Below the pieces are notes generated by a model. It was not told where the DNA came from. It saw nothing but the letters and a program-made list of their open reading frames with translations, and made no database searches. A program made the position numbers and the translations under genes. A stretch of DNA of 64,000 bases from a virus (taxonomy: Duplodnaviria > Caudoviricetes), in IMG/VR virus record IMGVR_UViG_3300021255_003843, positions 41,496 to 105,495 of that record; one strand, written 5' to 3'. Shown here piece by piece: positions 16,501-58,672 of this stretch. Within the stretch, counting starts at the first letter, position 1. The number at the start of each line of letters is the position of its first letter.

Positions 16501-19500
16501 AATTCTTTAAACTCCTGCTTCATGGCAGGCGGCAGCTGATCAAACTCTTCGCCATTCTTAATAAAATCTTCAAGCTGTCTATAAACAAAGCCAACGTTCG
16601 CAGCCCTGCTTCCGTAATAAGTTTCTGCTTGAGACTTACCTTCAAGCTCATTCTCTTTCTTTAGAAGACCAGACAAGAACTGCTGCTTCACGCTGTCAAC
16701 ACTGGACCGCAAAGTGTTAGCATGTTCTTGAGCTTGAATGTAAGTATAAGCCTTACCAAGTTGAGCATTCTCATCTAAGATACGCTGACGTTGCGCTGTT
16801 ATATCGCGATAAGCCTGCATATCAATCCCGCTGCCAGCAGCGAGTTGATCAACTTCGTCGTATACGCGCGCTACTTGAGCAGCTTCGGCCTCGGCTTTCG
16901 CGAGATCACCGTCTACCGCGTAAATACGTTTAGAAGCTTCAATAGCCTCTTCTTTTGTCATATCCGGAGAATAGCGAGCCTGATCTTCCTGCGGCAACGT
17001 ACTCTTGATCTGATTCATCTGCTCTTCGTGCTGTTTCGTCTCGATCTCAATACGCTGTAATTCAGCTTGATTCTCCTGTAGCTTTTTCTCAACTGCTTCA
17101 CGCTGCAGCACGGTATCCTTGCCAGTGAAAGTAAAATCTAAACCGCCCTTCTGCCCTAAGAATAATTCTGGCAGAAGCTTCGCAGGATCGTCTGTACGGA
17201 ACACAGAGCTAATATTTGGCTGGTTGATACCTCTTTCGATGAAACCCTGGGCTGCAGTAATACCATATTCGTTCATCTTCTTTTGAACATAAGAATCGAA
17301 CGAAACCTCAGAGCCATCTTCCATTTTAATCATGCCACCTTGGGCTTTTTGATATGCTTCTTCCTCGATTTCACGCTTAGATGCTATAATCATAGCCTGC
17401 ATATCATCAAGCTCTTCTGCAGACATCGGAGCCATCGGGTTAGCAATATCATACGCCTTCATTGTGCGAAGGTTCTTCATCAACGCTTGCGTTGTTTCGC
17501 CTGCTCCGCCATAACCCATATGTTCAAGAGCTTGAAGCAGAGCGTACGTGCGTTCCATATTGACGCCTTTAGACGCAACCTGAGATACAGCGCGCATTGT
17601 TCCAACGTCTGTTGTGTTAAAAATAGAACGGAAGTTGATCTTATCAAAACCAAGATCGCGAAGTTCCTTCATGTTGATAGGAATCTCATGTCCGTTTACT
17701 GTTGCGGTGTAGATGTCCTCAGGAGAAGGAACATCCATGTTGTCGCGGCCTGTTACGTTAAACAGGCGACTAAAACGAGACGGAAGCTTAGACCATTGAG
17801 CACCAGCGTATAAAGCCTTCTTCATCTGAGGAGTTGCTTCAGTAGATGTAGCGTGCTTTAACCCGGCGGTAGCTTGGTCGTAAGTAGGTGTGCTTTGAAT
17901 TGCCGCTGCTAAAAGATCTTTATTTTCAGGAGCGTATATATCAAACATTGCTGCACGACGCGCAGAAGCGTCGGCAGCACCCATTTCGTTTGTAACATCT
18001 TGACTTGTTTGAAAGAATAAACGACGATGAAGCGGATTGTCTACATTTTTAGCCGCTTCGGCAGGCATATCTACCTTCTTAATAATGGGCTCCGTACTTC
18101 CTTCAAAATCCTGAATGGCTTTTTCTTGAATGGCAACTACTTCAGCAAACGCTTCAGCTAAATCGCCATAAATCGTTTTTGCTTTATCCCCATCTAAGTC
18201 TGCGCTACCAAGCGTCGCCAAATCCGCCTCAGAAGCGAATAAGCCACTCGTAGTTTGCCCGAAAACTTTATATATATCTCTCGCTAAATTAGCATAGTTT
18301 TTGCCAACAACAAAGTTGCCAAACAGAGAAGGGCTTCTTTGAACAGCAACTTTTTTAGCATCAGGTCTGGCAAAGTCAACAAGTTGACCCTTGTTTAATG
18401 CGAACACACCTTCGAGATCTTCGTCACTAATGGTTAAAGCTGTGCCAGTTTTTTCTTGATATTGTTGACGGATTCTTTTCAGCAAGTCAGACCTACTAAG
18501 GCCATTGATCGTTTCAAGACCTAGTATGGACGCCAGAGGAGACTTATTGATAGTCTGGTTAATAACAGAAGGGTTTGTACCAAAATCTATCCATTCACCA
18601 GAAGACATGCGCTCTGTCAATGATTCAATCTCGTTCTGCACCCAGCTTTGCACGGCACTGCTGTTCACGTTTAGCTTGCCGCTTCTGATCTGCTTACCGA
18701 GATAGTTGTCAGGATCAGCAAACAAATATTCTCTGATGCCAGCCTCAGAACTTAACAGGTTGATGCGTCTATCAAATTCGTCGATTTGTTGTTGACGCAT
18801 CTTCGGACTGAGGTTCATAAAGGCCATTGCTTGAGTGCCGATACCTTTTGCTCTTGTTTCAGCATCATCATATGTGCTCATACTCGACATGCCATAATGC
18901 TGAAGCATCGCCGTAAAACCTTTGCTGATCTCTTCAGGAGTGTGGAAGTTCGAGTACGCCTGCATGTTTTTAATCGTAGAAGCATCAACGAAGCCATGGT
19001 AATCGGTTAAGTCAATGTTGCCGCCAACGCCAGGCAAGATAAACCGACCGTTGGCGTCCGTTAAGCCGGCAGCTTTTGCCCATTCGCCAACAGTCTTATA
19101 ACCGGAGATTTGGTGGAACGTACCCTTGCCGGCAACACCCATACGGCCCTGGAAATCTTTTTCAGGTAGAATACCATCCATGAACCAGCCGATACCATCG
19201 GCAAGCTTCTGCTTCACATTTTCATCATTGATTTGAGACAGATCAACAACAGCAAAGTTGCGATTCTTGAAATTGCCATGTGTGTCCCAGCTGTTTGACC
19301 AACCTTTACCGGTTGCATCGAAGTGTTTTCTCAAGCTTTCAATGTCTTTGAATTCATAAGCAGAATCAACGAAATCATTCCAGAAATTAGCGCCCTTACC
19401 GTCGGCAGTTACAAAGCCATGCTTCTGAGCCCATTCCTGCTCACGCTTCATGACAGCTTCATAAGCTTGCTGCTCAATCATGCGGACACCAGCATGAGTA

Positions 19501-37893: not shown

Positions 37894-37982
37894 GCACATC
37901 GTGCGGCGATTAAGCATAGGCCTAGCCGTGGCAAGCGGTAAACTAACAGCAACTCAACAAACAAAAATTAGGAGGAAAAACC

Positions 37983-40493
37983 ATGAGTATCATTAATTTA
38001 GTGAAATCCAACACCCTGTCTGTCGAAGAAACCAACGGAACCGGTGTCACTTTGAACACCGAAAACCATGCGTTCGGTCTGACTCCCGCGTTCACTCGCT
38101 TCTCCCCCGATTACTTCCAGATCATCGACACTGGAGATATGGATCGCGGAGAAATCCCCGCAGTTCAGAACTATCTCGACAACATCATCGACAACGGCAT
38201 CCAGGATGGAAGCCGTCGCTACATCCCGGTTTTCGCCGGTTCCAGCAACCAGCGCAATGGTCAGTTTGTAATGTGCTGGGACAAAATCTGGAACGACGTT
38301 ACATCCTGGTGCTGTGCCGGTCTCGATTGCAGGAAATTGCCTGTAGGCAAGCTCGCCAAATACATGGCACTCATGTTCTCAACCGTTCGTTCCTGGGATG
38401 CTGTGTTTCCCGATGGTGGACTCTATGGGGTGTTCAAGTACCCACATCCCAGCACCTGGGGCGTGTTCCCTGACGTTGACATTGACGCTGTTGGCCTGTT
38501 CAATAAGGTCACTCCGTGGGCTGTAAACAAAGAACTGGTCCTCGGTTCTGACAAAGAGACCAACAAGATCACTGATGGTATCGCTCTGTTCGTTCTGGAC
38601 GATACTCAGCTCAACTCTCATCAGAAGAAAGAGATCATCAAGAAAGCAGAAGCTTTCACCGTCAGAGCTCCCATGGTCAAAGGTCTCTTCGTTCCTGTTC
38701 TCAAATCCGCATTGATCAAGTGGTTCGAAGATCATCCCGAAGCGTCGTCTATTCAGAAGGACGCTTGGGGCAACGAACAGAACCTGCTCGACCTCCAGGT
38801 CATCACCTTCAAGTCTGTCTTCAAAGCTTGGAAGTGCATCAAGCAGTGGTCCGAGTACGTTGAAGGCTTCGATACCTACGAGCACCATGTGTGGGTCTGC
38901 ATCGCGGCGCACGGGGAGCGTTGGGCTTCCCTGCCGTATCAGCAGCTCCAAACCCTCAACGCCAACAATGCGCAGGTCGAGGAGCTCGCGCGCACCAGCG
39001 CGAGCTTCCTCATCGACAATGCCAAGATCGGTAAGCTTGGCAAGATCATCGGAGGAAACCTTGGCAAGATCGTCGACATCTTCCCGGATATGCTGCATGA
39101 TCCCTTCGTCCGTGAGCAGCTGCAGCGGAAGTGGATTAGCCGCTGCAAGCAGATGTATGGCGGCCGCATCCTGCATGTCAGCCATAATCTGTTCTGCTCC
39201 AGCGACATCATTGCCGTTATTGAAGGGTTGACTGGTCAGTCCGTTCATGGCGTGCTGCCTGCCAATACCGTGCACACTCAGGCCTTTGGTTACGACAGGA
39301 AGCTGGGCTGCACTCGCTGCCCGCATCTCGACAACGCGTGGGTCACTCCGCGCAACATCAAGGTTCCTGAGGAATATCTTGGCCTGTACATGGGCACCAC
39401 AATCTTCTACAGCTGCAATGACAACACCATGAAGGTTCATCAGATGGACTTTGACGGTGATCACAGCAACGTTACCGACAATCCACTGCTCATCAAGCTG
39501 GCTGAGTACAGCCATGCCAGCTATGGCGATTCCTGCCTGCTGTACGCGGCCATGGACGATGGCACCGCGCCGAAGACGACGTCTGATTATAAGACTGAGT
39601 TCAACGAGCTGTGCCGCAACAGCTTCAAGGCTCCGATCGGCCTGTACGCCAACACCCTGACCAAGGTTTGGGCTCTGCGTAACATGATGGAAAAGACCAG
39701 CGCTCAGGCTAAGAACCTGTGGGTGTGGATCGCCTGCCTGACCAGGAAGGGCAACACCTGCATTGATGAAGCTGGCGGACATGGCAAAGACAGCTCCGTC
39801 GGCATCGCGGAAGACGTGGTCGAACGGTTCCGTCGGACAAAGAAGCCATGGTTCCATGGTTATGCCAAGGGCACGATCAATCCTCAGGGTCAGATCGTCC
39901 GCGCTGACGCCGACTACAAGTACGAGTTCAAGCCGTTCCACACTGTCGACGTCTATAGCGCCATCTGCCGGATGCTTGTGCCGACAGAGGCTGAAACAGT
40001 GATCGATCTGTCCGCTTATTCCATTATTTACTCCAAAGAAGTAGCGGCCAGGATCGTTCGTACCCTTATGAAGGATTCCAATGTCCGCACCCGTCGTGCG
40101 GCCATGAAGGATCTTTCTGATACCTTCGCCGATCTCGTCTGCGCAGCCAACCATGAAGAAGTGCTGATCGCTCAGAGCAGCAGCCTGGCCGCTGTGCCGA
40201 ACTTCACCATGGATAAGGTCGATCTGATCCGCGCCAAGTGCGAGCAGATCGCTCTGAACTGCGGCTACACGCTGGACGACGCTGTCGACATTCTGGTCTT
40301 CAATCTGTTCTACAAGACCAGCGCGACCAGTGCGAAAACCTCCATGATGAAGCGCTGGTTCTTCATCGCCTTCGGTGACATCGTGTTCGAAAACGCGCAG
40401 CGCAACCTGTCCGTTGAACTCACGACCACCGACAACTACGAAGACGCCTCCGAGGAGGAGGATGACGACGCGATCGATCAGTTGGAAGACTGA
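37983..40493 (+). CDS. Single-subunit two-barrel (YonO/RdRP-like) DNA-dependent RNA polymerase, early non-virion
   Basis: ITDGIA, FTVRAPMVKG, TRCPHL (R445), QMDFDGD (D489, nt 39447-39461), IGLYANTLTK. Confidence 0.85.
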   Translation: MSIINLVKSNTLSVEETNGTGVTLNTENHAFGLTPAFTRFSPDYFQIIDTGDMDRGEIPAVQNYLDNIIDNGIQDGSRRYIPVFAGSSNQRNGQFVMCWDKIWNDVTSWCCAGLDCRKLPVGKLAKYMALMFSTVRSWDAVFPDGGLYGVFKYPHPSTWGVFPDVDIDAVGLFNKVTPWAVNKELVLGSDKETNKITDGIALFVLDDTQLNSHQKKEIIKKAEAFTVRAPMVKGLFVPVLKSALIKWFEDHPEASSIQKDAWGNEQNLLDLQVITFKSVFKAWKCIKQWSEYVEGFDTYEHHVWVCIAAHGERWASLPYQQLQTLNANNAQVEELARTSASFLIDNAKIGKLGKIIGGNLGKIVDIFPDMLHDPFVREQLQRKWISRCKQMYGGRILHVSHNLFCSSDIIAVIEGLTGQSVHGVLPANTVHTQAFGYDRKLGCTRCPHLDNAWVTPRNIKVPEEYLGLYMGTTIFYSCNDNTMKVHQMDFDGDHSNVTDNPLLIKLAEYSHASYGDSCLLYAAMDDGTAPKTTSDYKTEFNELCRNSFKAPIGLYANTLTKVWALRNMMEKTSAQAKNLWVWIACLTRKGNTCIDEAGGHGKDSSVGIAEDVVERFRRTKKPWFHGYAKGTINPQGQIVRADADYKYEFKPFHTVDVYSAICRMLVPTEAETVIDLSAYSIIYSKEVAARIVRTLMKDSNVRTRRAAMKDLSDTFADLVCAANHEEVLIAQSSSLAAVPNFTMDKVDLIRAKCEQIALNCGYTLDDAVDILVFNLFYKTSATSAKTSMMKRWFFIAFGDIVFENAQRNLSVELTTTDNYEDASEEEDDDAIDQLED

Positions 40494-40601
40494 TCGTCGC
40501 GTCGCTCAGGCGTCACGCTCCGTCGCGCAAAGAGCGGCCATGCTGTGGCAAGCGGCAATTCTCTGTAATAATAAAAAACAAAAAAATGGGAGGAAAACAC
40601 A

Positions 40602-41108
40602 ATGTCTATCACTTTGAAGTCTATGCGCGCTGGTAAGGTTTCCGTCAATGAGTTCAATACCTATCCCGAGATGCTGCCCGTTCTCATGAAGATCCATGGC
40701 ATGAATCTGCCTTACTACATCCTCGAAGATGGCAAGATGATCTTCCAGGGCAACCTGGAGTTCGTCGAGAAGGAGAAGGACGCACCCGTCTCTTATACCC
40801 TGAAGACGATGAACGAGGATGGTATGACTGACACCGCTCAATTCACCAATTTCGCCGACCTGTCTATCGCTGCCGCAGTGGCAGACATCAACCATATGCC
40901 GTGGTTCGTAGTCGATAACCATTCCGGCAAGATCATTCGTCAGGGTAATATCGAGCGCGTTGCCGCCATCAAGAGCGGCAACGCGCCGGAGACCTGCGTC
41001 GCCGAAGAGCCTGTCCCCGAAACTCCTGACGTCGACGTCGATATAGACGCTACGCTTGATGAGATGAACGATCTCATCGGAGATCTCGGCGCTCTTGACA
41101 ATATCTAA
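40602..41108 (+). CDS. Hypothetical protein, acidic C-terminus
   Basis: RBS GGGAGG. Confidence 0.65.
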   Translation: MSITLKSMRAGKVSVNEFNTYPEMLPVLMKIHGMNLPYYILEDGKMIFQGNLEFVEKEKDAPVSYTLKTMNEDGMTDTAQFTNFADLSIAAAVADINHMPWFVVDNHSGKIIRQGNIERVAAIKSGNAPETCVAEEPVPETPDVDVDIDATLDEMNDLIGDLGALDNI

Positions 41109-41342: not shown

Positions 41343-41572
41343 GCTATGACCTGAGTACGTCGTTAAACTGCTCCGGCTTGTCTGCGCCGTAAAGACAGGC
41401 TTCTTATCCCGCAGCGCGGCTCCCCCTTTTTTCCGGCCCCATATTTTTCCCGCTTCCGCTCGCTCCGCTCCACCTCGCCTTCGGCTCGCTCCGCTCCGCT
41501 TCGCTGCTTGCGTGCGCTTCCGCGCTTGTTTCCGGATGTTGCTCTATCGTGTGATTCTGTCCGAGTTTTCCT

Positions 41573-41662
41573 GATAACTTATCTGGAAAAGTCAGGATGA
41601 GCGGCATCCTGCGATAATTTATCCATCCTTCATGTCAGGAAGAAGTTTGCAGATAAATTATC
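41573..41662. repeat. Three palindromes GATAAnTTATC at 39-40 bp spacing
   Basis: Copies at 41573, 41613 and 41652. Confidence 0.7.
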
Positions 41663-41708
41663 TGGATTTCTCAGGCAAGTCTCATGCGTCTCGCAAAATT
41701 GAGTATGG

Positions 41709-41740
41709 GCGCGCTGAGGACAGCGCGCGCCATGGTGATA
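41709..41740 (+). promoter_or_regulatory. AGGA-loop hairpin element, copy 1
   Basis: GCGCGCTG-AGGA-CAGCGCGC-GCCATGGTG. Confidence 0.7.
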
Positions 41741-41780
41741 GCTTCGTTTATCGAAATAACTTGAAGGAGGAAGCTGCGCT

Positions 41781-41942
41781 ATGGCGCTCGTGGTATTCAT
41801 AATCCTGATAACAATCATCATGCTTGGTGACATCATCGTGGATCTATTGGATCAATTCTTGTGGCCGCTCATACTGCGTCGGGACGCACTGCATGTAGAT
41901 AAGCGGAAACGTCCAAAACGCCAGAAATGGCAGTATCGTTAA
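41781..41942 (+). CDS. Small membrane peptide (53 aa) with basic tail
   Basis: Read manually: MALVVFIILITIIMLGDIIVDLLDQFLW...KRKRPKRQKWQYR; RBS AAGGAGG. Confidence 0.6.
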   Translation: MALVVFIILITIIMLGDIIVDLLDQFLWPLILRRDALHVDKRKRPKRQKWQYR

Positions 41943-42016
41943 AAACTCTACTGAATAAAAAAGCCGGACGCCCAATGAAAGGCGTCCGGCTTTCGTGAAT
42001 GAAGGAGGAAATCACT

Positions 42017-42490
42017 ATGTGCAAAATCACTGATGTTACTATTGTTACCGACGGCGCTTGCTCCGGCAATCCTGGTCCCGGAGGCTGGTGCGCTCTCATG
42101 ATCTGCGAAGGCAAGGAGCGCTCACTGCACGGCCACAAGACGCAGACCACCAACAATGAGATGGAACTCACTGCCGTGGTCCAGGGTCTTCAGGTGCTGC
42201 GCTATCCCTGCACGGTGAAGGTACTGACCGACAGCGCTTACATCGTCAACCAGATCAATGGCGGTTATCTCGAGAAGTGGGCCAGCAATGGCTGGCGCAC
42301 CTCGACGAACCAGCCGGTGCAAAACCTGCACCTGTGGCAGGACCTGCGTGCAATGCTCAATGTGCACACCGTCACCTTCGTCAAGGTGAAGGGTCACAGC
42401 GGCGATCCGCTCAACGAGAGAGCGGACCATGAAGCCTGCTGCGAGCGTGATCTTGCGAAAATCATGGCGTTCTCCGTAACGCCCGTGTAA
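42017..42490 (+). CDS. rnhA: Ribonuclease HI
   Basis: TDGACSGNPGPGGW, TTNNEMEL, TDSAY, VKGHSG..NERAD motifs. Confidence 0.95.
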   Translation: MCKITDVTIVTDGACSGNPGPGGWCALMICEGKERSLHGHKTQTTNNEMELTAVVQGLQVLRYPCTVKVLTDSAYIVNQINGGYLEKWASNGWRTSTNQPVQNLHLWQDLRAMLNVHTVTFVKVKGHSGDPLNERADHEACCERDLAKIMAFSVTPV

Positions 42491-42507
42491 TACAAGGAGG
42501 TTGTCAT

Positions 42508-42687
42508 ATGAGAAAGAACACTGGACTTATTCTCGCGATGCTGTTTATGATGTGCGTCGCTTTCGTAGCCGGTTGGCTGATCACTACGCATCATCTGGTG
42601 ATCGAGTGCGACCATCCAAAGAATACGATCTACGTGACAGACATGTTCGGCCAGGAGTGGATCTACGATTACAATTGTGTCCGCTGA
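42508..42687 (+). CDS. Small membrane-anchored protein (59 aa)
   Basis: Read manually: MRKNTGLILAMLFMMCVAFVAGW...; RBS AAGGAGG. Confidence 0.6.
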   Translation: MRKNTGLILAMLFMMCVAFVAGWLITTHHLVIECDHPKNTIYVTDMFGQEWIYDYNCVR

Positions 42688-42712
42688 TGTCACAGGTCGA
42701 ACCCGTAAAGGT

Positions 42713-42744
42713 GCGCGGCGAGGACGCCGCGCGCCATGGTGATA
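42713..42744 (+). promoter_or_regulatory. AGGA-loop hairpin element, copy 2
   Basis: GCGCGGCG-AGGA-CGCCGCGC-GCCATGGTG. Confidence 0.7.
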
Positions 42745-42778
42745 TAACGCACTTCTAATAAGTGTTGAATGAAGGAGA

Positions 42779-43117
42779 ATGAGTATGTATCAGTATAAGG
42801 TTCAGATGATCAACCACAATATGCCGTCCAGGCATTATACGCTGCAGCACAGGCTGAACACCTGGCTCGAGGCTACCGGCACGACCAAGGCAGAACTCTC
42901 CCGTGCCTGCCAGGCCTACGCTTCTCACTATCGCATGAACTTCTCTAAGACGAACATCGCTCATTATTCTGCAGGACGCTGCTGCCCGAAGACGGACACT
43001 CTCGCGATCCTGAGCCATGTCATGGGAGTCTCTGAGCAGTGGCTCACTGGCTACGGTCCGGAATCTCTGCGTGTCACCAGAACTCTGGTATCTACGACAC
43101 GCTACACCAGGGTATGA
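42779..43117 (+). CDS. XRE-family helix-turn-helix regulator
   Basis: TKAELSR...SKTNIAHYSAGRCCPKTDTLAILSHVMGVSEQWLTG. Confidence 0.8.
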   Translation: MSMYQYKVQMINHNMPSRHYTLQHRLNTWLEATGTTKAELSRACQAYASHYRMNFSKTNIAHYSAGRCCPKTDTLAILSHVMGVSEQWLTGYGPESLRVTRTLVSTTRYTRV

Positions 43118-43710
43118 CACAGATGAGAGCGTGCTGAAATATGCACGCTCTCTTTTTTCAGAATCCTGGATGAAACTCAGGCTATTCTGTACAGAAGGGT
43201 CGCGATCACTGAACGATCGGGGGACAAGCTATATAATAAATACGATGTCCCCGGATGCACGAGCTCCACTGGTAGAAAAACACCATAATGCACGAAACAT
43301 TTTGGTTAGGGAGCAATGACGTGGAATAGTTGGGAATGTAAGTGAAATCAGGGGAAATGATAGGGGAGAGAACAGTTCTTTTCCTGTTTTTCCTATTTTC
43401 TATTCCTTTTTCATGCTCAATGACCACAGCAGTGCTCCTTAATACCCCACTTTTCTATATAAGCACCAATTGTAGTTTTCTACACTGATAGAGACGGCCG
43501 TGTGTTCACGCTTCGTGAATACCCGTTGCGTATCGCTACACTGGTAGATACACACATTCCGTCTCTAACGATAGACCCATAGGGTTCCTACTAACAACAT
43601 CTAAGCGCTCCCTTTCCTCCACGCCTTTTGGATAGGCGGGGAAAGGGAGCTTATTCATGACCGTGCTTCTCTCATATTCGTTTCTAAACAACACATATGT
43701 ATCTAACATT

Positions 43711-43752
43711 ACGAAAAGGGGAGGGCTGCTGGCGCAGCCCTCCCCTTTTCGT
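43711..43752. terminator. Strong bidirectional terminator hairpin
   Basis: ACGAAAAGGGGAGGGCTGC/GCAGCCCTCCCCTTTTCGT. Confidence 0.8.
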
Positions 43753-43805
43753 GTAAATCAACGTTTTTCGTTTGCATATTCGAAGGTCCGCTTCGCGTCC
43801 CTTCT

Positions 43806-43832
43806 CATATATATCCATTCTCGAATGTAATC
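43806..43832 (-). promoter_or_regulatory. 27-bp motif (copy 3), not followed by a gene with an RBS
   Basis: GATTACATTCGAGAATGGATATATATG. Confidence 0.7.
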
Positions 43833-43930
43833 GCACCTACATACTTTATCTGATATAGTACATCGACAGATGATGTATATATATCTGGTTGAATTTTTAA
43901 CCAGATTATCCTGGACATACCTCGCCTTAA

Positions 43931-43960
43931 CCGCGCTGAGGACAGCGCGGGCCATGATGG
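43931..43960 (+). promoter_or_regulatory. AGGA-loop hairpin element, copy 3
   Basis: CCGCGCTG-AGGA-CAGCGCGG-GCCATGATG. Confidence 0.7.
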
Positions 43961-43976
43961 AACTTACGGGGACTCC

Positions 43977-44005
43977 ATTATACTGTCGCCGTGAAACCCT
44001 GTCAA
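43977..44005 (-). promoter_or_regulatory. Consensus sigma-A promoter
   Basis: TTGACA-N17-TATAAT on the minus strand, facing AGGA hairpin copy 3. Confidence 0.75.
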
Positions 44006-44076
44006 GTTAAATTTTTATTACAAATTTTCGTCGTCTTGCGCTGCAATGGACGATGTAAACCCGCCAGGAGGACCAT

Positions 44077-44331
44077 ATGGAAGAAGAGTTCAAAGAAGGA
44101 GATCTTGTCGTCATCAAACAGAGCAAACATTGCTTAGTTGAAGACATCAGACAAGAACATCGCAAAGCATTTGAGATTCTTTGCGCGACGCCGCACGCAG
44201 TGAGAGATTATAAGAAATCATCAAATCTACTTTATGTTCCGGTTCTGGAAGGCAATGCCACAATTGTCTTGAGTCCGGAATGGTTTGAGCACGCTGACGA
44301 TCCCATCGAGAACAATCCTGACCTGTACTGA
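44077..44331 (+). CDS. Small SH3/KOW-like paralog 1
   Basis: FKEGDLVVIK...PEWFEH...PDLY. Confidence 0.65.
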   Translation: MEEEFKEGDLVVIKQSKHCLVEDIRQEHRKAFEILCATPHAVRDYKKSSNLLYVPVLEGNATIVLSPEWFEHADDPIENNPDLY

Positions 44332-44366
44332 CGCCACTTCCCCGCTCCGCCGTTACGCAGACGGGG

Positions 44367-44400
44367 GCGGCCTGAGGACAGGCCGCGCCAGGATGAAGGG
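44367..44400 (+). promoter_or_regulatory. AGGA-loop hairpin element, copy 4
   Basis: GCGGCCTG-AGGA-CAGGCCGC-GCCAGGATG. Confidence 0.7.
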
Positions 44401-44453
44401 TTTGACGCCCTTCGGAAATAACAAACGTGCGGCAGAGCCGCGAGGAGGAAATT

Positions 44454-44642
44454 ATGGAGCGTGAATATTTCTTTAACCAGAGCAAAGCTTTTGATCCGAC
44501 CGCCGGCTGCGCCCTGAACCGCATCGAAGCGGAGCAGAAAAGAAAAAGGAATAAGGAAGCCTGGCTCGAGATCGCCCGCAAGATGTGTTCTAAGCCTCAG
44601 CATCTCTTTGTTCCGGTAGGTGAACTGGTTGTGAAAGCCTGA
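44454..44642 (+). CDS. Small hypothetical protein
   Basis: ATG after GAGGAGG. Confidence 0.6.
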   Translation: MEREYFFNQSKAFDPTAGCALNRIEAEQKRKRNKEAWLEIARKMCSKPQHLFVPVGELVVKA

Positions 44643-44680
44643 TCCCGCCGGGAAAAGAAGCTTGACTTCAGCAACGAAAG

Positions 44681-44714
44681 GCGGCCTGAGGACAGGCCGC
44701 GCCAGGGTGAAGGG
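44681..44714 (+). promoter_or_regulatory. AGGA-loop hairpin element, copy 5
   Basis: GCGGCCTG-AGGA-CAGGCCGC-GCCAGGGTG. Confidence 0.7.
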
Positions 44715-44886
44715 TTATACGGCCCTTGCCCGACGAATCGCAAAACAAAAGCGATTCGTCGCAAAATCAAGACTCGTTACGCGCTGCAGACAAATGCTCC
44801 GGCGCGAAACGATATATTTTGATGCGAAAAGCATCCGACAAAATGGCAGACGCCAAACGCCCACAGGGCAGAAAGAGAGAGAGAGT

Positions 44887-45306
44887 ATGAATAAGCTGTT
44901 TATCATGGGTCACCTCACCGCCGACGCTACCGTCCGCACCGTCAATGTCGCTGGCGTTCCTACGCCTGTTGCCACCTTCACCGTCGCTGCCAACTATGGA
45001 CGCCGCAACGAGAATGGTGACCGCAACGTCCAGTTCGTGCGCTGCACCGCGTGGCGTGAATTCGCCAGCAAGCTCGCGCCGTACCTGAAGAAGGGCACCC
45101 AGGTGGCCGTCGAAGGTCCGTGCCGCGTCTCCGTGTACCAGAGCAACCAGGACCGCACCTGGCGTGGTCAGCTCGAGATCCCGACGATCGAGAGCTTCGA
45201 GTTCCTGAGCGCCCAGAAGAGGGACGAAGCGGCTGAACCCGCAGAAGCGCCCGCTCCTGAGACGCCCGCTGCTCCCGCCGCCGATGACGGCTACCCCTTC
45301 GATTAA
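44887..45306 (+). CDS. ssb: Single-stranded DNA-binding protein 1
   Basis: MNKLFIMGHLTADA, ATFTVAAN, YLKKGTQVAVEG, acidic DDGYPFD tail. Confidence 0.88.
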   Translation: MNKLFIMGHLTADATVRTVNVAGVPTPVATFTVAANYGRRNENGDRNVQFVRCTAWREFASKLAPYLKKGTQVAVEGPCRVSVYQSNQDRTWRGQLEIPTIESFEFLSAQKRDEAAEPAEAPAPETPAAPAADDGYPFD

Positions 45307-45323
45307 TGAAAAGAGGAATCTGA

Positions 45324-45428
45324 ATGGATCCGTATTCTGAGTTCTGTACTGTCGAAGACGCGCTGGACTGGTTCACCGGCGAAGCGCTCTTCGAGCTTCA
45401 CGAATTCGAGGAATCCGAAAACGAATAA
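45324..45428 (+). CDS. Very acidic 34-aa peptide
   Basis: Read manually: MDPYSEFCTVEDALDWFTGEALFELHEFEESENE; RBS AAGAGG. Confidence 0.5.
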   Translation: MDPYSEFCTVEDALDWFTGEALFELHEFEESENE

Positions 45429-45459
45429 GGCGGGCTTGTCCCGCCTTTTTATGCAGCGC

Positions 45460-45628
45460 AGCCCGTCAATGTCGGACAAGCTGTACTTCCAAGAATAAGT
45501 GGTTGAAACCGACCATATTGATAGTTGCCAGGTCAAGTAACTGTTCAATGGGGACAAGCCACTTCATGGGACAACTCCTCCGCGCGCCGAGACGCCCTCC
45601 TCCTCCTGGGGCGTCTCGGCTTATTTTT
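45460..45628 (+). ncRNA. Candidate structured small RNA with C-rich loops and terminator
   Basis: Long interrupted hairpin at about 45498-45564, CTCCTCC motifs, terminator GCCGAGACGCC/GGCGTCTCGGC plus TTATTTTT. Confidence 0.4.
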
Positions 45629-45703
45629 CGTCAGCGAAGTCTTTTGAAGGCCGCCGTCTGGCCCGGACCGCAATAACTTGTATTATCGAATCGGAGGCGG
45701 AAG

Positions 45704-45994
45704 ATGACTGAACAGGCGCGTGGTTTCAAAGAAGGCGATCTGGTTGTTGTAAAGCCAGAATATGCAGATGTGATGTACGAAGCATACAAACACCTCATAT
45801 TGTACGGTACGCCTAAGTCTAAGCTTGGTAAAAACATTGCTCTCGGAGAACCCGCTATCGTTCTTCGCGTTTGGGATGACGAAATGTGGATAACCGACAA
45901 AGATGACAGAACGGGAGAATTCATTGCACCTCTAACGCAATGGTTTACGTTTTATAAAAATAAAGCAATGGATGCAATTGATCATCTCCTGTAG
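45704..45994 (+). CDS. SH3/KOW-like paralog 2
   Basis: FKEGDLVVVKPEY...IDHLL. Confidence 0.7.
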   Translation: MTEQARGFKEGDLVVVKPEYADVMYEAYKHLILYGTPKSKLGKNIALGEPAIVLRVWDDEMWITDKDDRTGEFIAPLTQWFTFYKNKAMDAIDHLL

Positions 45995-46004
45995 GAGGAT
46001 TAAA

Positions 46005-46286
46005 ATGAGTAGTTTTGAAATTGGCGACATCGTAGTCGTCAAGCCAGAATATGCCTCATCCTTCAGAAACATATACGAAGGGCATGAGAGTTTGTTCAAT
46101 AGACATAAAGTTCGCTTCGGAATCAGCGTTTCGGAAGGCGCACCAGCGCGTGTCGTGCATACCACTTATGACGGCATCGACCTGACCGATCTCGACAATA
46201 CACTCAGCCCCAACTCCTGGCTCTGCACCGAGAGAGAATGGTTTGAGCTCTATCAAGAGCGAGGACCGATCGAGCAGCTCTTGTGA
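46005..46286 (+). CDS. SH3/KOW-like paralog 3
   Basis: FEIGDIVVVKPEY...IEQLL. Confidence 0.7.
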   Translation: MSSFEIGDIVVVKPEYASSFRNIYEGHESLFNRHKVRFGISVSEGAPARVVHTTYDGIDLTDLDNTLSPNSWLCTEREWFELYQERGPIEQLL

Positions 46287-46293
46287 GGTAACT

Positions 46294-46617
46294 ATGGATT
46301 ATTTTCACGTTGGAGATATCGTCGTAGTAAAGCCTGAATATAGCGAAGAGCTGATAAGAAGCTATTCGTCTGGCTACAGCGACGCAAAATGCAAATTTGG
46401 TCGCGCTGTTGCGCGTGGCGCTCCAGCCAAGGTCGTCCACTGTCACAAAAGCGAAATTGTCAAAGTGTCAGACTACACGAAAGAGTATCTAACTTTTGGT
46501 GGCAGCAGCGGATGGCTAACAGATCTTGAGGAAACGCTGCAATGCGAGGATTATTTGCACCTAAGCAGCGCCTACTTTGACCTTTATATGCCTCCGATAC
46601 CTGATGGTCTGCTGTAG
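46294..46617 (+). CDS. SH3/KOW-like paralog 4
   Basis: FHVGDIVVVKPEY...PDGLL. Confidence 0.7.
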   Translation: MDYFHVGDIVVVKPEYSEELIRSYSSGYSDAKCKFGRAVARGAPAKVVHCHKSEIVKVSDYTKEYLTFGGSSGWLTDLEETLQCEDYLHLSSAYFDLYMPPIPDGLL

Positions 46618-46627
46618 GAGTTTTATA

Positions 46628-46870
46628 ATGTGTTATGTGCATGAAATAGAAACGTTTCACGAAGGTGAAATCGTCGAAATGACAGACCATGTGAAAAAGT
46701 TACCACGACTAAAAGAAGCCCGTATTTTACAGGATGACAAATTCCTAATAAAAGATGTAGGCGTAAACGGTATTTTAAAAATACAGAATATAAGAAACAA
46801 CGAAGATTACTATGTCAAAAACATTTCATTGCAGCACATAGTTCCTGAAGTTGAAACATGTCTTCTGTAG
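46628..46870 (+). CDS. SH3/KOW-like paralog 5
   Basis: FHEGEIVEM...ETCLL. Confidence 0.65.
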   Translation: MCYVHEIETFHEGEIVEMTDHVKKLPRLKEARILQDDKFLIKDVGVNGILKIQNIRNNEDYYVKNISLQHIVPEVETCLL

Positions 46871-47183
46871 GAGCGCCCATGCCAACATCAGTGTATCAGC
46901 CGGACCAGTTTGTCGTCGCGCTGCTGTAATTATTGCGTGCCCCTTTGATCATCACCCGTGCAAATCGGGCAGGGGCTATACTCAACCTCCTTTCTGGACG
47001 CTGGCAAGCCGTCCAATGAAGCTTGCCAACAGGTTTGCGGTACTCGCCTGCCCTAATATAAAAAACCGTTGTGAGTAGACAGTCATGGCAGTGTGTCTGC
47101 AAGTCCCGGGAGTCCTCCAAGTGCAGGTAAATGCATAGCCTCGAACTCCCGGGGCGGACGTTCTATTTTGAAAGGAGACGCTC

Positions 47184-47639
47184 ATGCTGAGATTTGTCAA
47201 AGGTGATTTGCTTGAAGCAAAAGAAGATTTCATCTGCCATCAGGTCAACTGCATGAGCGCAATGGGCTCAGGCATTGCTAACCAGATCGCGGACAAATGG
47301 CCTCAAGTAAAAACACTGTATTTATCAAAATGCCAGATGTTTGATGACAGAAGACTTCTGTTGGGCAAAGTTCAGTCTATAAAAATCGATGAACATCAAT
47401 ACGTACTGAATATTTTCAGCCAGTATACTTATGGCAGCGACAAAAATACGGTCTATACAAACTATCCAGCTTTGCAGAAAGCGTTGTATCTGGCTCGTTT
47501 GCCTGATAAAAGCTATGCTTTTCCGTACCACTTTGGATGCGGCTTAGCGAACGGCGACTGGACAACTGTTCGTTCGCTAATTGAGAAAATACTGGCCTAT
47601 GACCACGAAGTTGTTATTTACAAGAGGTACGCCACATGA
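47184..47639 (+). CDS. Macrodomain protein (Poa1p/DarG-like ADP-ribose hydrolase)
   Basis: KGDLL, HQVNCMSAMGSGIA, AFPYHFGCGLANGDW. Confidence 0.88.
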   Translation: MLRFVKGDLLEAKEDFICHQVNCMSAMGSGIANQIADKWPQVKTLYLSKCQMFDDRRLLLGKVQSIKIDEHQYVLNIFSQYTYGSDKNTVYTNYPALQKALYLARLPDKSYAFPYHFGCGLANGDWTTVRSLIEKILAYDHEVVIYKRYAT

Positions 47640-47905
47640 AAGGAAACGCTAAGCTATACAAACCAGGCGACGAAGTGTTCGTCTCCGACGATATTATGTA
47701 TATGAATACCAGTGACGGCGTAGGCATTGCAGAAGCGATGAAAACAATGGCCGGCCAACGTCTGACAATCAAAGCTATTTCCGATGGATATCCGAAGTGT
47801 GGCTTGTGTTATATCGTAAAAGAAAATACTTTCTTATGGCAGGATGAAATGTTGGAGCCCATTAGCAACATTGACATGACCGCCATGGACAGCCTGCTTT
47901 TATGA
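47636..47905 (+). CDS. SH3/KOW-like paralog 6
   Basis: YKPGDEVFV...WQDEMLEP...DSLLL. Confidence 0.7.
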   Translation: MKGNAKLYKPGDEVFVSDDIMYMNTSDGVGIAEAMKTMAGQRLTIKAISDGYPKCGLCYIVKENTFLWQDEMLEPISNIDMTAMDSLLL

Positions 47906-47915
47906 GGTAATAACT

Positions 47916-48197
47916 ATGTTTCAAGAAGGAGATCTCGTCGTAGCGAAAAACCCGGCAAGAATGCGAGAAACATATAAAGATTGGGCCAAACGATACCCGG
48001 ATGAACGCATCAAGTATGAACTCGGGCTGAAATTTGCTGACGGTGCGCCTCTTGAAATTATCAGGATGAGAGGAGCCACCGGCGTAGTTCTCGGCCCAGT
48101 TGGTTCGTCATGCACAGACAACGACAAAACGCTCTGGCTCAACTCAGGCGATCTTGCGCTTTGCGACGACATGCAGCCTGTGTCTGATTTATTGTGA
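47916..48197 (+). CDS. SH3/KOW-like paralog 7
   Basis: FQEGDLVVAK...VSDLL. Confidence 0.7.
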   Translation: MFQEGDLVVAKNPARMRETYKDWAKRYPDERIKYELGLKFADGAPLEIIRMRGATGVVLGPVGSSCTDNDKTLWLNSGDLALCDDMQPVSDLL

Positions 48198-48204
48198 GGT
48201 AGCT

Positions 48205-48414
48205 ATGTTTCGAGTAGGCGATATAGCAATAGCCAATGAACGCGCCAAAGGCGTTTATTCAATAACCAAGCCAGGCTGGATCGGCACAGTTATCAGGGTT
48301 TATCCTGGTTTCATTACAGTAGCCGGAAAAGAAGGCAATTTCACTGTATGTTCGGAACACTTCGATCTTTATAAGGATCCTCTTGATATCAAAGACATCT
48401 CGCGGTTGATATGA
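48205..48414 (+). CDS. SH3/KOW-like paralog 8
   Basis: FRVGDIAIA...YSITKPGWIGTV...SRLI. Confidence 0.7.
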   Translation: MFRVGDIAIANERAKGVYSITKPGWIGTVIRVYPGFITVAGKEGNFTVCSEHFDLYKDPLDIKDISRLI

Positions 48415-48422
48415 CCGCATAT

Positions 48423-48495
48423 GGCCTCTTAGCTCAGCCGGTAGAGCAGCTGACTGTTAATCAGCCGGTCGCGCGTTCAAATCGCGCAGAGGCCT
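48423..48495 (+). tRNA. tRNA-Asn (GTT)
   Basis: GGCCTCT/AGAGGCC acceptor, GCTGA-CTGTTAA-TCAGC anticodon arm, GTTCAAAT T-loop; no encoded CCA. Confidence 0.88.
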
Positions 48496-48667
48496 CGTCG
48501 GGACGATCTGCCGGAAAATGGCGCAGATCACGCGCAACGCTGTTGGAACAGAAGGCTTGGGTTGCGCAACTTGTCAGCAAAAGAAATATCTATAGTTTTT
48601 AGCCATTTCCATGCCTTGCTTACAGCTGACAGCCCTGCCGCTGGGGTCATAATACAGCGGATTTTAT

Positions 48668-49178: not shown

Positions 49179-49199
49179 CTACGAAATCAAGGAGCTTAT

Positions 49200-55632: not shown

Positions 55633-55848
55633 AGTAAACGCCGGGGGCGTCATGCACATGTAAGTATACAGGAATAAGCATTGCGGCTTATAAGGAACTT
55701 ACGCGCTTGATGTCATCAGGCGAACGTCATTACTTCAGAGACTCCTCCTCCTTTGCTAGTACGCCAGGAGGCAGCTAAAGCTGCCTCCTGGCTCCCTAGC
55801 AAAGTCGTCGGTAACTTGTTAGAAAAAGATGACGTCCCCGGTTTTACT
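55633..55848 (+). ncRNA. Retron msr-msd ncRNA located 3' of the RT
   Basis: a1/a2 arms 55633-55653 and 55829-55848 pair over 20 bp (2 GU, 1 bulge); unpaired G55654 opposite G55828; short msr stems at 55675-55690 and 55704-55722; msd hairpin 55751-55804. Confidence 0.82.
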
Positions 55849-55918
55849 ATTTTCCTACGTTCCGGCCAATGTTTTTCTGTCGGAGCGCATTGTTTTACTT
55901 TCAGAAAGGGGCGGTTTC

Positions 55919-58672
55919 ACGAGTACGAAAAGCTATTTAAGCAGTCAAATCCGCCTGATTTCACTCACTACCTACGACCTCCTCACCGAAGAGGAACGCA
56001 CTGTTTACTTCAAGATCGCCGAGCTCAAGAATAAGCTGAACGATCGTACCGGAGAGCGCGAGCAGATCCTTGAACAGAAGAAGATTCTGCAGCAGCAGCT
56101 CTCACAGCTCATTGCCTCCCATGAACATGTACCTCGGTCTGTCAACCTGGATGCCGTGCTCGATCCTACGTTACCGGTGCGCCCGCCGGGGGTTTCCTGG
56201 AAAACTCTCCGGCCTACCAGACGCATCGCCGAGTTCGTGTCCGAAGAAAGCAGGCTCCTTCAGCTGGAGCCTAATGCCATCTCCTTTGACAAGATCATCG
56301 TCAAGTGGAAATCGCTGGACATTCTGCGTCAAATCATACTGAACGGCTTCACCATGCCGGTCATGAATGGGGCGGGAGAGATCGTTGTCAAGCGCTACCG
56401 CTTCCACACAGCCAGCGCGGGACAATTGCGCACCGATAAGGTGCAGTTTATCGCGGAAGACGCCTGGTCCCGCATCGCGCCAGGTATTATGTGCGGTCTG
56501 ACCTGGAACATCATCAACCAAAAAGGCGGCATCAATACCTCAAAGCTGATGGCTTATCTGTCCCTGCCAAGCTCGGCAACCGATCCCTTTGACCTCGACA
56601 TCGATCGCTGTATCGTCGTGGATGATTTTGAAGCGCCTGTTACAGGCATGATGGATTACATTAAGCCGGATTACACGATAGAACGTGGCGTTCGCACAGT
56701 TACAATCAATCATACCGATGGCAGCGGCATGATGCTTCCTTCCGTGTCTCGGTGGAACTTCATGATTCGTGGACCTTGGCTCAAAGGATTGCTCTGTTCG
56801 TTTGACTTCCTGCGCTTCTGCTCTGTCAATCACTGCGAGCCGAAGCTTACAGATGTCTGGGGACAGGAGCATGATTTGATGGCGGAAGATATTCAGGTTA
56901 TCTTCACCAAGAGCCAGCTGAAGCTGTGGAAATACTACGACAGCTGGGATCAGTACAAAACCTGCTTCAAGGAGTGTGGCTGTCACTTCGGTCGCACGAA
57001 TATGGAAGAGGCTTACATCCAAAACTCGGAAACCAACTATCAATTTCTTCAAACACTGGTCGATTTTCCAGACGAAAATCTCAGAGAATTTATCAGGCCA
57101 ACTTATGATCGCATCAAAACCCTGTCAACTGACCGGGAGCACATGCTGCATGCGTTGGGCGCAGATGATTTCTCTGAAATTCCGTACCGAAACGCGCTGC
57201 AAATCTATCCCGAGCTTCTGCGCGAAGCGTATTCGCGTGACTCACTGAAGGCAATCAAGAAACGCTGGACGCTGGACGCCAGGTCTGGCAAGATCCGCTG
57301 TAAAAATAAGCGTCTCTTTGCCATCCCGGATTTCTATGCCGCGTGCCAGTTCTGGTTCCTTCATGAGCAGGAACCCGTGGGCCTTTTGCAGAACGGCGAG
57401 GTGTTCGCAAGGCCTTTTATGCAAACGGATGAGGTTGATGTATTAAGGAGTCCACATCTGTATTTTGAACATGCACTCCGAAAAGTCAACCATGATCCAA
57501 ACATCGCCAGCTGGTTTTATACCAATGGAATTTACACCAGCTGCCACGATCTGATCAGCAGAATCCTCCAATTCGATGTAGACGGGGACCAGCTAAACGT
57601 CCTGTCAGATCAGATCATTTTGAAAGTAGCCAGGCAGAACCTGGAAAAGTACGACATCGTCCCACTATTCTACGACGCCACGAAAGCTCCTCCGGAACAG
57701 GTTACCTCAGAAGCTTTGTTTCACGGCGTCAAGCGCGCGCATGACTACAGCGGCATCGGTCAGATCTCCAACTCGCTTACGCGGCTTTGGAACAGACCTA
57801 ACCCTGATTTTACGTCTGCTGCGCTGCTGTGCTATTACAATAACCTGACGATTGACGGCGCAAAAACCGGGTCCGTCAATTCCTACGACAAATACCCGGA
57901 AATCTCTGCCCGCATTAACAAAGCGATCGGCGGCCCTAATGGGAGAATGCCATACTGGTTTCAGTTCTCCAAGAACGGCCGGCGCGCAGACACGGCTACG
58001 AAAAAGAAGAAGTTGTGCGCAAAGCCTAATGATTCCACGATGAATCGGCTTTGCGCTTTATTTGATGATATAGGAATAATCAATATGAATGCGGCAGGCG
58101 TTCCGCCATTCAACGGCAATATGTTTCTGGAGAATCCGGTCATGGATTATAACGAACAGGCTGTTGAACTTTTTAATACGCTGGACGCCAGTAATCTCCA
58201 GTCTCGTATCGAAGGCGCTTCCATGATGGATATTATGGAAAAGTACAACGCCATCGGCTACGAGGCTTTGAAGGAACTGATCACAGACAAGCTGACCGAC
58301 CTGTGCGGCAGCCTGGAAAACGCTTATCCGTCCATTGCCTACTATCTTTTCATAGGCGAAGGCGCGGACAAAGCTTCCCATAAGCAAATGTTCTGGCGCG
58401 TGTTCGGCGACATCGCGCTGCGCAACCTGAAGTTCAACCTGATGACCTCTGTCTCGTGTCCTCACTGCGGCATGAAACTGCCGGTATGGGAGGAGGGGCA
58501 TGTCTGCTCTCCTGTAGCCCACGGTTTCTTCACCTGTGAAGATTGTGGGCAGTGGTGTCCTCGCACCAACAGCAGGCAGCGCCGCTGTGCCGCATGTCAG
58601 AAGGAGTATCGTAGGGCTTCGCTCGTCGCGCACAATCAGAAGTATCGCGCCATCAAAAAGGAGACGGCCTGA
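55919..58672 (+). CDS. YonO-like single-subunit RNA polymerase with C-terminal Zn ribbons (candidate late RNAP); start uncertain
   Basis: SAGQLR, HTDGSG, FMIRGPWLKG, LRSPHL, QFDVDGD (nt 57575-57589), IGQISNSLT, IDGAKT; CxxC pairs at the C-terminus. RBS AGAAAGGGG sits 7 nt before an in-frame ACG at 55919. Confidence 0.88.
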   Translation, partial: TSTKSYLSSQIRLISLTTYDLLTEEERTVYFKIAELKNKLNDRTGEREQILEQKKILQQQLSQLIASHEHVPRSVNLDAVLDPTLPVRPPGVSWKTLRPTRRIAEFVSEESRLLQLEPNAISFDKIIVKWKSLDILRQIILNGFTMPVMNGAGEIVVKRYRFHTASAGQLRTDKVQFIAEDAWSRIAPGIMCGLTWNIINQKGGINTSKLMAYLSLPSSATDPFDLDIDRCIVVDDFEAPVTGMMDYIKPDYTIERGVRTVTINHTDGSGMMLPSVSRWNFMIRGPWLKGLLCSFDFLRFCSVNHCEPKLTDVWGQEHDLMAEDIQVIFTKSQLKLWKYYDSWDQYKTCFKECGCHFGRTNMEEAYIQNSETNYQFLQTLVDFPDENLREFIRPTYDRIKTLSTDREHMLHALGADDFSEIPYRNALQIYPELLREAYSRDSLKAIKKRWTLDARSGKIRCKNKRLFAIPDFYAACQFWFLHEQEPVGLLQNGEVFARPFMQTDEVDVLRSPHLYFEHALRKVNHDPNIASWFYTNGIYTSCHDLISRILQFDVDGDQLNVLSDQIILKVARQNLEKYDIVPLFYDATKAPPEQVTSEALFHGVKRAHDYSGIGQISNSLTRLWNRPNPDFTSAALLCYYNNLTIDGAKTGSVNSYDKYPEISARINKAIGGPNGRMPYWFQFSKNGRRADTATKKKKLCAKPNDSTMNRLCALFDDIGIINMNAAGVPPFNGNMFLENPVMDYNEQAVELFNTLDASNLQSRIEGASMMDIMEKYNAIGYEALKELITDKLTDLCGSLENAYPSIAYYLFIGEGADKASHKQMFWRVFGDIALRNLKFNLMTSVSCPHCGMKLPVWEEGHVCSPVAHGFFTCEDCGQWCPRTNSRQRRCAACQKEYRRASLVAHNQKYRAIKKETA

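Follow-up and report, generated by a model that had tools for sequence, protein, structure and literature searches.

To our knowledge, hairpin promoters have been established only for the T7-like virion RNA polymerase of N4-type phages. The early promoters P1-P3 of N4, which are read by the virion polymerase gp50, are hairpins with a conserved loop, a stem whose sequence is free as long as it pairs, and a fixed distance to +1 (PMC4496689). The question addressed here is how promoters are recognised by the small two-barrel polymerases of the single-chain type (YonO, crAss-like gp66 and QDE-1-like enzymes). YonO of SPbeta transcribes the late operon from one start upstream of yonK, and the study describing this left its promoter undefined (PMC5467207); crAss gp66 and QDE-1 accept single-stranded DNA as an in vitro template but not double-stranded DNA, and the early transcripts of gp66 yielded no sequence motif (10.1101/2020.03.07.982082). 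Two two-barrel polymerases are documented for the Thermus phage P23-45 (PMC10770324), and the late promoters of the non-virion RNA polymerase (nvRNAP) of AR9 have the form AACA(-11..-8)-N6-T(-1)R(+1) and are read on the single template strand (PMC5449584). A literature search gave no report that links two-barrel phage polymerases to hairpin promoters. In this study, we describe five G+C-rich hairpins, named m1 to m5, in a stretch of 64,000 nucleotides (the window) that covers bases 41496-105495 of the 105,495-bp virus record IMGVR_UViG_3300021255_003843. Beside them lies the gene of a two-barrel RNA polymerase, RNAP-1, which may use them as promoters.

Hairpins in the window

The preliminary description, made from the letters of the window, had placed five hairpins at 41709, 42713, 43931, 44367 and 44681, and all five were recovered on the plus strand (Table 1). 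They lie inside 3 kb, and each one is intergenic and upstream of a plus-strand gene, in line with the earlier statement that a plus-strand open reading frame (ORF) follows each copy. The perfect 8-bp pairing, the AGGA loop and the shared 3′ flank also hold for the five copies: the stems are all G+C save position 7, and the tail reads GCCAKGRTG(A/G). No T-run follows any of them, which agrees with the reported lack of a U-tract.

The pattern GAGGAC-N7-GCCAKGRTG, with at most two mismatches, was matched five times against 0.27 matches expected, and five matches were reached in 0 of 100 shuffles. A scan of the remaining genome had been proposed as a check; run over the whole 105,495-bp record, it returned m1-m5 as the sole copies. 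A covariance model built from 27 copies (see below) found m1-m5 at E values of 1e-12 to 1e-10, the next match in the genome being at E 0.036. Folded as single-stranded DNA (ssDNA), the five copies reach -11.5 to -16.5 kcal/mol, with z values of -4.7 to -5.8. The Rfam search matched three tRNAs only and returned no family for the hairpins.

Conservation and covariation in related phages

The RNAP-1 gene ends 1.2 kb ahead of m1, and in all relatives, too, the hairpin cluster follows directly on this gene. Relatives were obtained via RNAP-1 homologs, which gave eight contigs at 31-76% identity, while the contig L252 came from a separate metagenome scan with RNAP-1 alignment; overall, metagenomes contain RNAP-1 homologs at 31-94% identity. 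The same design was present in at least nine related phage contigs, on the gene strand and downstream of RNAP-1, including 8 of the 8 fetched via homologs. Two short pattern scans of a viral collection (14 specified bases) gave chance single matches only, among the matches listed, and no prophage with an RNAP-1 homolog was found in a scan of one genome per prokaryote species.

A G+C-rich stem of about 8 bp, a loop of 3-4 nt, a spacer of 6-9 nt and an RTG(A) block are constant across lineages. The stem sequence varies and is always compensated, and loop (RGGA, GCA, RGG or GCG) and spacer depend on the lineage (Table 1). Covariation was assessed in 27 RGGA-class copies from 6 phages, which together give 216 pair cells. 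Pairing was Watson-Crick in 99.1% of these cells; two-sided changes occurred at 7 of the 8 stem pairs (57 cells), with neither a one-sided change nor a G-U pair. The observed covariation score was reached by 0 of 500 shuffles, and sliding the 3′ partner abolished the signal. Given this degree of pairing, the covariation at 7 of 8 pairs and the absence of any shuffle scoring as high, selection acts on the hairpin structure and not on the stem sequence. The claim that the stems covary, modest inside the window where two of the copies have identical stems, becomes overwhelming once the relatives are added. In the RGGA class, all copies have an invariant TG 8-9 nt beyond the stem, and a GC is fixed relative to this TG (GC-N5-TG) while the stem may shift by one base either way. 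The hairpin is a real, conserved and structure-constrained cis-element, for which a promoter function is predicted.

Single loci conserve the arrangement closely. The m3 ortholog in L236 has an identical stem and 5′ flank. In L239, one 54-nt intergenic gap consists of the hairpin, GCATTTGTGAAAGGAGG (elsewhere written GTGAAAGGAGG) and the start codon; the hairpin lies 10 nt past one gene and 25 nt ahead of the next, which is too tight for a terminator and a promoter as distinct elements.

One or two hairpin copies in a genome carry a further sequence, GTTACGC(C/A)AAC(A/G)G, immediately before the 5′ side of the stem, and this is so even in a lineage with a different loop.

The m3 junction and the downstream transcription layout

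The copy m3 stands at the end of a non-coding gap of about 810 nt and heads the unit starting at 44077. To its left, the helix-turn-helix (HTH) gene is followed by a strong intrinsic terminator and then by a second one. A consensus scan found no rightward sigma-70-type promoter between the terminators and 44077, where m3 is the only conserved rightward element, and a leftward copy of an AT-rich motif (class A, see below) lies 95 nt left of m3. Thus placed, m3 is the head of a rightward unit at a divergent junction. Since two terminators precede it and no rightward promoter was found close by, transcription of the rightward unit must begin from some element at this place. Beyond m5, neither a strong plus-strand terminator nor a host-type promoter was found in 44700-59870, that is, for 15 kb up to and beyond the gene of a second polymerase, RNAP-2. 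Such a layout agrees with a cascade that would supply RNAP-2, the YonO ortholog described below, from the hairpin units.

Other elements were observed around the same junctions. A perfect host-type promoter (TTGACA-17-TATAAT) faces m3 and would start leftward transcription about 13 nt from the putative m3 start, then read through m3; both of its hexamers are invariant in four lineages (the window, L236, L242 and L241). Operator-like palindromes occur 25-140 nt upstream of m1 and m3, and tandem 26-nt repeats lie in the 440-nt non-coding stretch before m1.

Two-barrel polymerases of the phage

The record belongs to a siphovirus-like phage, in which the minus-strand late genes (terminase, portal, Dit and a 5,453-aa tape measure protein) occupy 1-36016 and plus-strand genes begin near 36340. 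The RNAP-1 protein matches PHROG 8308 at 4e-58 and shares 24% identity with SPbeta yonO in a tblastn comparison (E 2e-12). Its AlphaFold model (pLDDT 87.9) matched QDE-1 (E 8e-16) and plant RDR2 (about 1e-15, TM 0.58), as well as P23-45-type gp64 (1.5e-4) and gp66 of crAss phi14:2 (7e-4). As judged by its metal site and predicted fold, RNAP-1 is a two-barrel (YonO/QDE-1-like) RNA polymerase. RNAP-2 lies inside the long rightward unit headed by the hairpins; it matches PHROG 8308 at 1.5e-174 and SPbeta YonO with 35% identity over 83% of the length (E 1e-121), and is 24% identical to RNAP-1. On the strength of these alignments, it is RNAP-2, not RNAP-1, that is the true YonO ortholog.

In a profile comparison, the motif RSPSL...SADLDGD of the tape measure protein aligned with RCPHL...QMDFDGD of the RNAP-1 family, so that a virion polymerase of the two-barrel type may reside in the N-terminal part of the tape measure. 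With this candidate, the phage seems to encode three enzymes of the two-barrel type: RNAP-1, the YonO ortholog and the tape-measure-fused domain. A search for a gp50-type (T7-like) virion polymerase gave no credible candidate and no PDB sequence match. The Pfam domain vRNAP_dom_2 gave a sub-threshold match (17.6 bits vs a 27-bit cut-off, E 0.0047) at about 9990-10170 on the minus strand, in the C-terminal part of the tape measure (residues ~3575-3632), and this match is probably noise.

The conserved acidic protein of about 160 aa, encoded always next after RNAP-1, may possibly be a cofactor. Its gene is preceded in every relative (L123, L236 and L239-L242) by a conserved element, GGCC..GCCGTGGCAAGCGGCAATTC, located 30-40 nt before the ribosome-binding site (RBS). 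The same element also lies upstream of the RNAP-1 gene here, and further copies were found before RNAP-1 in L242 and L236. All three polymerases are also present in a more distant relative, G002 (the record of L246; C1:65596-68391 and 12855-15113). Its YonO ortholog has 6 and its tape-measure polymerase domain 2 in-frame TAG codons, which suggests TAG recoding.

A second, AT-rich motif class

The class A motif consists of CATTCGAGAATKGATATATATG followed by a purine-rich start and has four genomic copies, all directed away from m3. It was found at syntenic places in six relatives (L123, L236 and L239-L242), and it looks like a second, AT-rich class of phage promoter. Given that YonO drives the late genes in SPbeta (PMC5467207), this candidate class possibly belongs to the YonO ortholog. 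A weight matrix of the motif, applied to the SPbeta yonN-yonK gap, gave nothing above background. The space between the stop codon of the tape measure and the Dit start contains, beside the AT-rich copy that precedes Dit, a perfect hairpin of 18 bp with a loop of 3 nt.

Table 1 Features of the window and hairpin copies of related contigs. Positions refer to the window unless a contig is named.
Feature	Position	Strand	Sequence or type	Context
Hairpin m1	41709-41728; with flank 41709..41738	+	GCGCGCTG.AGGA.CAGCGCGC, then GCCATGGTGA	Invariant TG 41736-41737 (G 41737), 44 nt to start codon; next gene from 41781, a 53-aa membrane peptide, then RNase H
Hairpin m2	42713-42732; with flank 42713..42742	+	GCGCGGCG.AGGA.CGCCGCGC, then GCCATGGTGA	Invariant TG 42740-42741 (G 42741), 38-44 nt to start codon; next gene HTH regulator, ATG 42779 or 42785, end 43117
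Hairpin m3	43931-43950; with flank 43931..43960	+	CCGCGCTG.AGGA.CAGCGCGG, then GCCATGATGG	G of invariant TG 43959, 118 nt to start codon
Hairpin m4	44367-44386; with flank 44367..44396	+	GCGGCCTG.AGGA.CAGGCCGC, then GCCAGGATGA	G of invariant TG 44395, 59 nt to start codon; GTTACGC on 5′ side; next gene from 44454
Hairpin m5	44681-44700; with flank 44681..44710	+	GCGGCCTG.AGGA.CAGGCCGC, then GCCAGGGTGA	G of invariant TG 44709, 178 nt to start codon; next gene single-stranded DNA-binding protein (SSB), 44887-45306
Hairpins of L123, L240			Loop GGGA; after stem (A)GCCATGRTGA	3 copies each
Hairpins of L242			Loop RGGA; after stem AGCCATGGTGA	6 copies
Hairpins of L236			Loop AGGA; after stem AGCA-NNN-GTGA	8 copies
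Hairpins of L239			Loop AGGA; after stem GCMTTTGTGA	3 copies
Hairpins of L241			Loop GCA; after stem GACTTATCTGTGA	4 copies
Hairpins of L243			Loop RGG; after stem RCATGAARTGA	6 copies
Hairpins of L244			Loop AGG; spacer ends AGTG	3 copies
Hairpins of L252			Loop GCG	4 copies
Upstream sequence	44351-44357; L123:14850s, L236:17385s, L239:11560s, L241:6815s, L242:10485s and 12060s		GTTACGC(C/A)AAC(A/G)G	Directly 5′ of stem
RNAP-1	37983..40493	+	836-aa single-chain two-barrel RNA polymerase	QMDFDGDH/DFDGD at residue 489
RNAP-2	55829..58672	+	947 aa	DVDGD
Tape measure, N-terminal part	16716..19418	-	RSPSL...SADLDGD, residues ~860-910	DLDGD 18186-18200
Acidic protein	40602..41108	+	~160 aa; 168 aa in this phage	Next after RNAP-1
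AT-rich motif, copy 1	4431-4457		CATTCGAGAATKGATATATATG	Points into Dit, abutting its RBS
AT-rich motif, copy 2	36107-36133		CATTCGAGAATKGATATATATG	Points into terminase-portal late operon
AT-rich motif, copy 3	43806-43832		CATTCGAGAATKGATATATATG	Points leftward into 43160-43800 gap
AT-rich motif, copy 4	59869-59895		CATTCGAGAATKGATATATATG	Points into primase/helicase gene
First intrinsic terminator	43125-43152		Hairpin plus T6	After HTH gene
Second intrinsic terminator	about 43700-43750			
Host-type promoter	43977-44005	-	TTGACA-17-TATAAT	Leftward, face-to-face with m3
Operator-like palindromes	41567-41596, 41646-41675, 43884-43907		CTGATAACTTATCTGG, CAGATAAATTATCTGG, ATCTGGTT..AACCAGAT	
Tandem 26-nt repeats	41453-41504		CTTCSGCTCGCTCCGCTCC...	
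GGCC element	37919-37979, 40536-40597		GGCC..GCCGTGGCAAGCGGCAATTC	
18-bp hairpin	4478-4516			

Hairpins as candidate promoters

We estimate at about 55% the probability that the hairpins are structure-specific promoters, or the promoter core, of one of the phage's own two-barrel polymerases, most likely the adjacent RNAP-1. Promoters recognised by structure and used by a phage RNA polymerase had already been suggested in the preliminary description, and this is the best-supported reading: the hairpins lie next to a polymerase gene, they are compensated in every relative, and one copy heads a unit. With regard to the reading enzyme, RNAP-1 is our tentative choice, the tape-measure-fused enzyme would be an unlikely reader, and RNAP-2 a very unlikely one. 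In the proposed mechanism, the 8-bp G+C inverted repeat would extrude as a small hairpin, and the polymerase would read the hairpin shape, the purine loop (pyrimidine in the template strand) and the GC at -8/-7. By analogy with AR9, the invariant TG located 8-9 nt beyond the stem would then mark the start of the RNA, with T as -1 and G as +1. For an ssDNA-preferring enzyme, the melting problem would be solved by such an extruded hairpin, at the base of which single strands are exposed. The hairpin units would express RNase H, the HTH regulator, small proteins and SSB, and would continue for about 15 kb into the YonO-ortholog gene, which would give a cascade from a virion polymerase or the host enzyme to RNAP-1 and from RNAP-1 to RNAP-2.

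A less probable but serious alternative is that the hairpins act in RNA instead, as intercistronic or 5′-untranslated-region stem-loops bound by a phage or host protein. They might then set a site of endonucleolytic processing at a fixed distance, near RTGA, protect the message downstream of them against decay from its 5′ end, or load an antitermination factor. In favour of this, the hairpins share the orientation of the genes and are intergenic, their RNA fold would be stable, a conserved loop with a 3′ tail is typical of protein-bound RNA hairpins, and three copies lie 26-39 nt after stop codons. At m3, however, two terminators precede the hairpin and no rightward promoter was detected upstream, so that a pure RNA element would have no transcript there. 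The absence of G-U pairs and one-sided changes among the 216 pair cells also speaks against recognition in RNA, as does the lack of an Rfam match; the stem is too short for RNase III, and the strict 8-bp geometry with near-total G/C would be unusual for a simple stabiliser. The RGGA tetraloop is similar to CsrA sites of high affinity, and CsrA-like GGA loops had been brought up in the preliminary description. This suggestion is weakened by the loops of orthologous hairpins (GCA, GCG and AGG), which lack GGA in the L241, L243/L244 and L252 lineages, and a CsrA/RsmA site was rejected as a general explanation, the GGA loop being present here and not conserved in related lineages. Lambdoid nut sites have a 5-bp boxB stem, a GNRA-like pentaloop and a boxA partner, one per early operon; the 8-bp stem, the tetraloop, the 5-9 copies per genome and again the missing Rfam match led us to reject this identity. 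A leader peptide or a Shine-Dalgarno (SD) sequence in the loop (AGGA...RTG) was rejected as well, as the mini-ORFs vary in length between 2 and more than 20 codons and an SD-like loop is missing in other lineages.

Improbable, in our judgement, are terminators or pause sites that are specific to a phage two-barrel polymerase and dispense with a U-tract. A precedent of a kind is the conserved 26-nt terminator motif of the tape-measure-fused virion polymerase of P23-45 (PMC10770324), and several of the hairpins lie shortly past stop codons. The P23-45 terminator motifs do end in T-runs, whereas none of the copies here has one, and ordinary intrinsic terminators exist elsewhere in the same region. 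Moreover, m3 and its orthologs head a unit at a divergent junction rather than end one, where a terminator role makes no sense, and the L239 hairpin, squeezed between its neighbour genes, leaves no space for a new promoter. An intrinsic terminator proper was rejected: the U-run is lacking, the flank reads GCCAKGRTGA, and the gene-strand consensus scan lists none of the five. We give still less credit to duplex operators bound by a dimeric regulator, for example the HTH protein encoded nearby, or to single-strand initiation sites for a primase, although the repeats are perfectly inverted and both HTH and primase/helicase genes are encoded. A dimeric operator keeps its half-site sequence, while at least 5 stem positions vary freely and with compensation here, and neither the asymmetry of loop and 3′ tail nor the strict co-orientation suits a symmetric operator. 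Priming, for its part, gives no reason for the intergenic placement or the confinement to 3 kb.

Several points weigh against hairpin promoters read by a two-barrel polymerase. Initiation at the hairpins is something we infer from sequence; the hairpin would form equally in RNA, and the absence of G-U pairs may reflect selection for maximal stability in stems that are almost pure G/C. The three copies just past stop codons stand where a terminator or processing site would also fit. The putative transcripts show only a weak tendency to begin with another hairpin, with a mean z of -1.0 and 21 of 36 copies pairing within the first 4 nt. The mapped promoters of P23-45 gp64 and gp96 (PMC10770324) and of AR9 (PMC5449584) are linear motifs, and SPbeta has no match to the covariance model built for this subtype of hairpin. 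Furthermore, the DNA of L123 and L242 is 93-95% identical on both sides of RNAP-1, with the hairpins and the AT-rich motif unchanged, while their RNAP-1 proteins are only 48% identical; the RNAP-1 module was exchanged together with upstream small genes (L242:2538-7352 vs L123:9161-12510). The hairpin subtype thus does not seem to track RNAP-1 tightly, and because hairpins this similar accompany such different RNAP-1 proteins, the reader could be another protein. Either recognition is conserved over that distance, or the reader is a different protein, for example the virion polymerase. In L243 and L244, RNAP-1 proteins of 51% identity share a loop type. Loop type broadly follows the deep RNAP-1 clades, L242 with its L123-type hairpins being the exception.

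In a wider and more tentative form, which we hold to be possible, single-chain polymerases of the YonO/QDE-1/crAss-gp66 kind would find their starts by the shape of extruded hairpins and not by sequence. The three enzymes would then form a cascade, in which the tape-measure virion enzyme precedes RNAP-1 on the hairpins, and RNAP-1 precedes the YonO ortholog, acting on the AT-rich CATTCGAGAATKGATATATATG motif for late genes. If true, the promoter function of the hairpins would explain how a sigma-less, ssDNA-preferring enzyme starts at specific sites on double-stranded DNA, and could explain the missing sequence motif in the early transcripts of crAss gp66. Hairpin promoters would then have been invented a second time, independently of N4, with unrelated polymerases converging on them. 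The short orthogonal promoter and its polymerase of about 830 aa could serve as an expression tool, and, in a widespread group of phages from gut and rumen, early transcription units can be annotated with the help of the motif.

Comparison with known systems

The SPbeta system shares the polymerase superfamily, and RNAP-2 is, at 35% identity, the counterpart of YonO. It differs in the lack of a hairpin copy by the model of this subtype, and RNAP-1 is only 24% identical to YonO. Thermus phage P23-45 has a similar outfit: a giant tape measure with an N-terminal DxDGD domain and a separate small two-barrel polymerase, together with two classes of phage motif, one AT-rich and strongly conserved, the other GC-rich. 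The promoters of its gp64, however, follow a linear motif similar to TCTAGGGGC, which is located about 10 nt before the start and has no hairpin potential, in contrast to the covarying hairpin here, and the present phage has a third polymerase, the YonO ortholog. A gp64-type GC-rich promoter was rejected as an identity for the hairpins, as the published promoter sequences share no motif with them. The AR9 nvRNAP is likewise a two-barrel enzyme with single-stranded promoter reading, an upstream element near -8 and T(-1)R(+1), to which GC at -8/-7, N5 and T-G would correspond here; unlike the polymerases of this phage, it is multisubunit and uracil-dependent, and its promoters have no hairpin.

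The parallel with N4, drawn already in the preliminary description, holds for the mechanism only, as no credible N4/T7-type polymerase was found and the enzymes are two-barrel. The N4 stems have 5-7 bp with a 3-nt loop centred at -11, whereas 8 bp, a 4-nt loop and a TG at 8-9 nt are found here, and the N4 reader is a T7-like single-subunit enzyme, unrelated to the two-barrel enzymes of this phage. Extrusion of the N4 hairpins depends on supercoiling and on SSB, and the enzyme binds the hairpin of the template strand. In both systems, the inverted repeats are short, rich in G+C and closed by a small conserved loop, and the copies before early genes are few, clustered and co-oriented; the short distance that in N4 leads to the start would lead here to the invariant TG as the putative start. 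The hallmark of the N4 type, a conserved loop on a stem that is free in sequence as long as it pairs, is found throughout the 27 RGGA copies.

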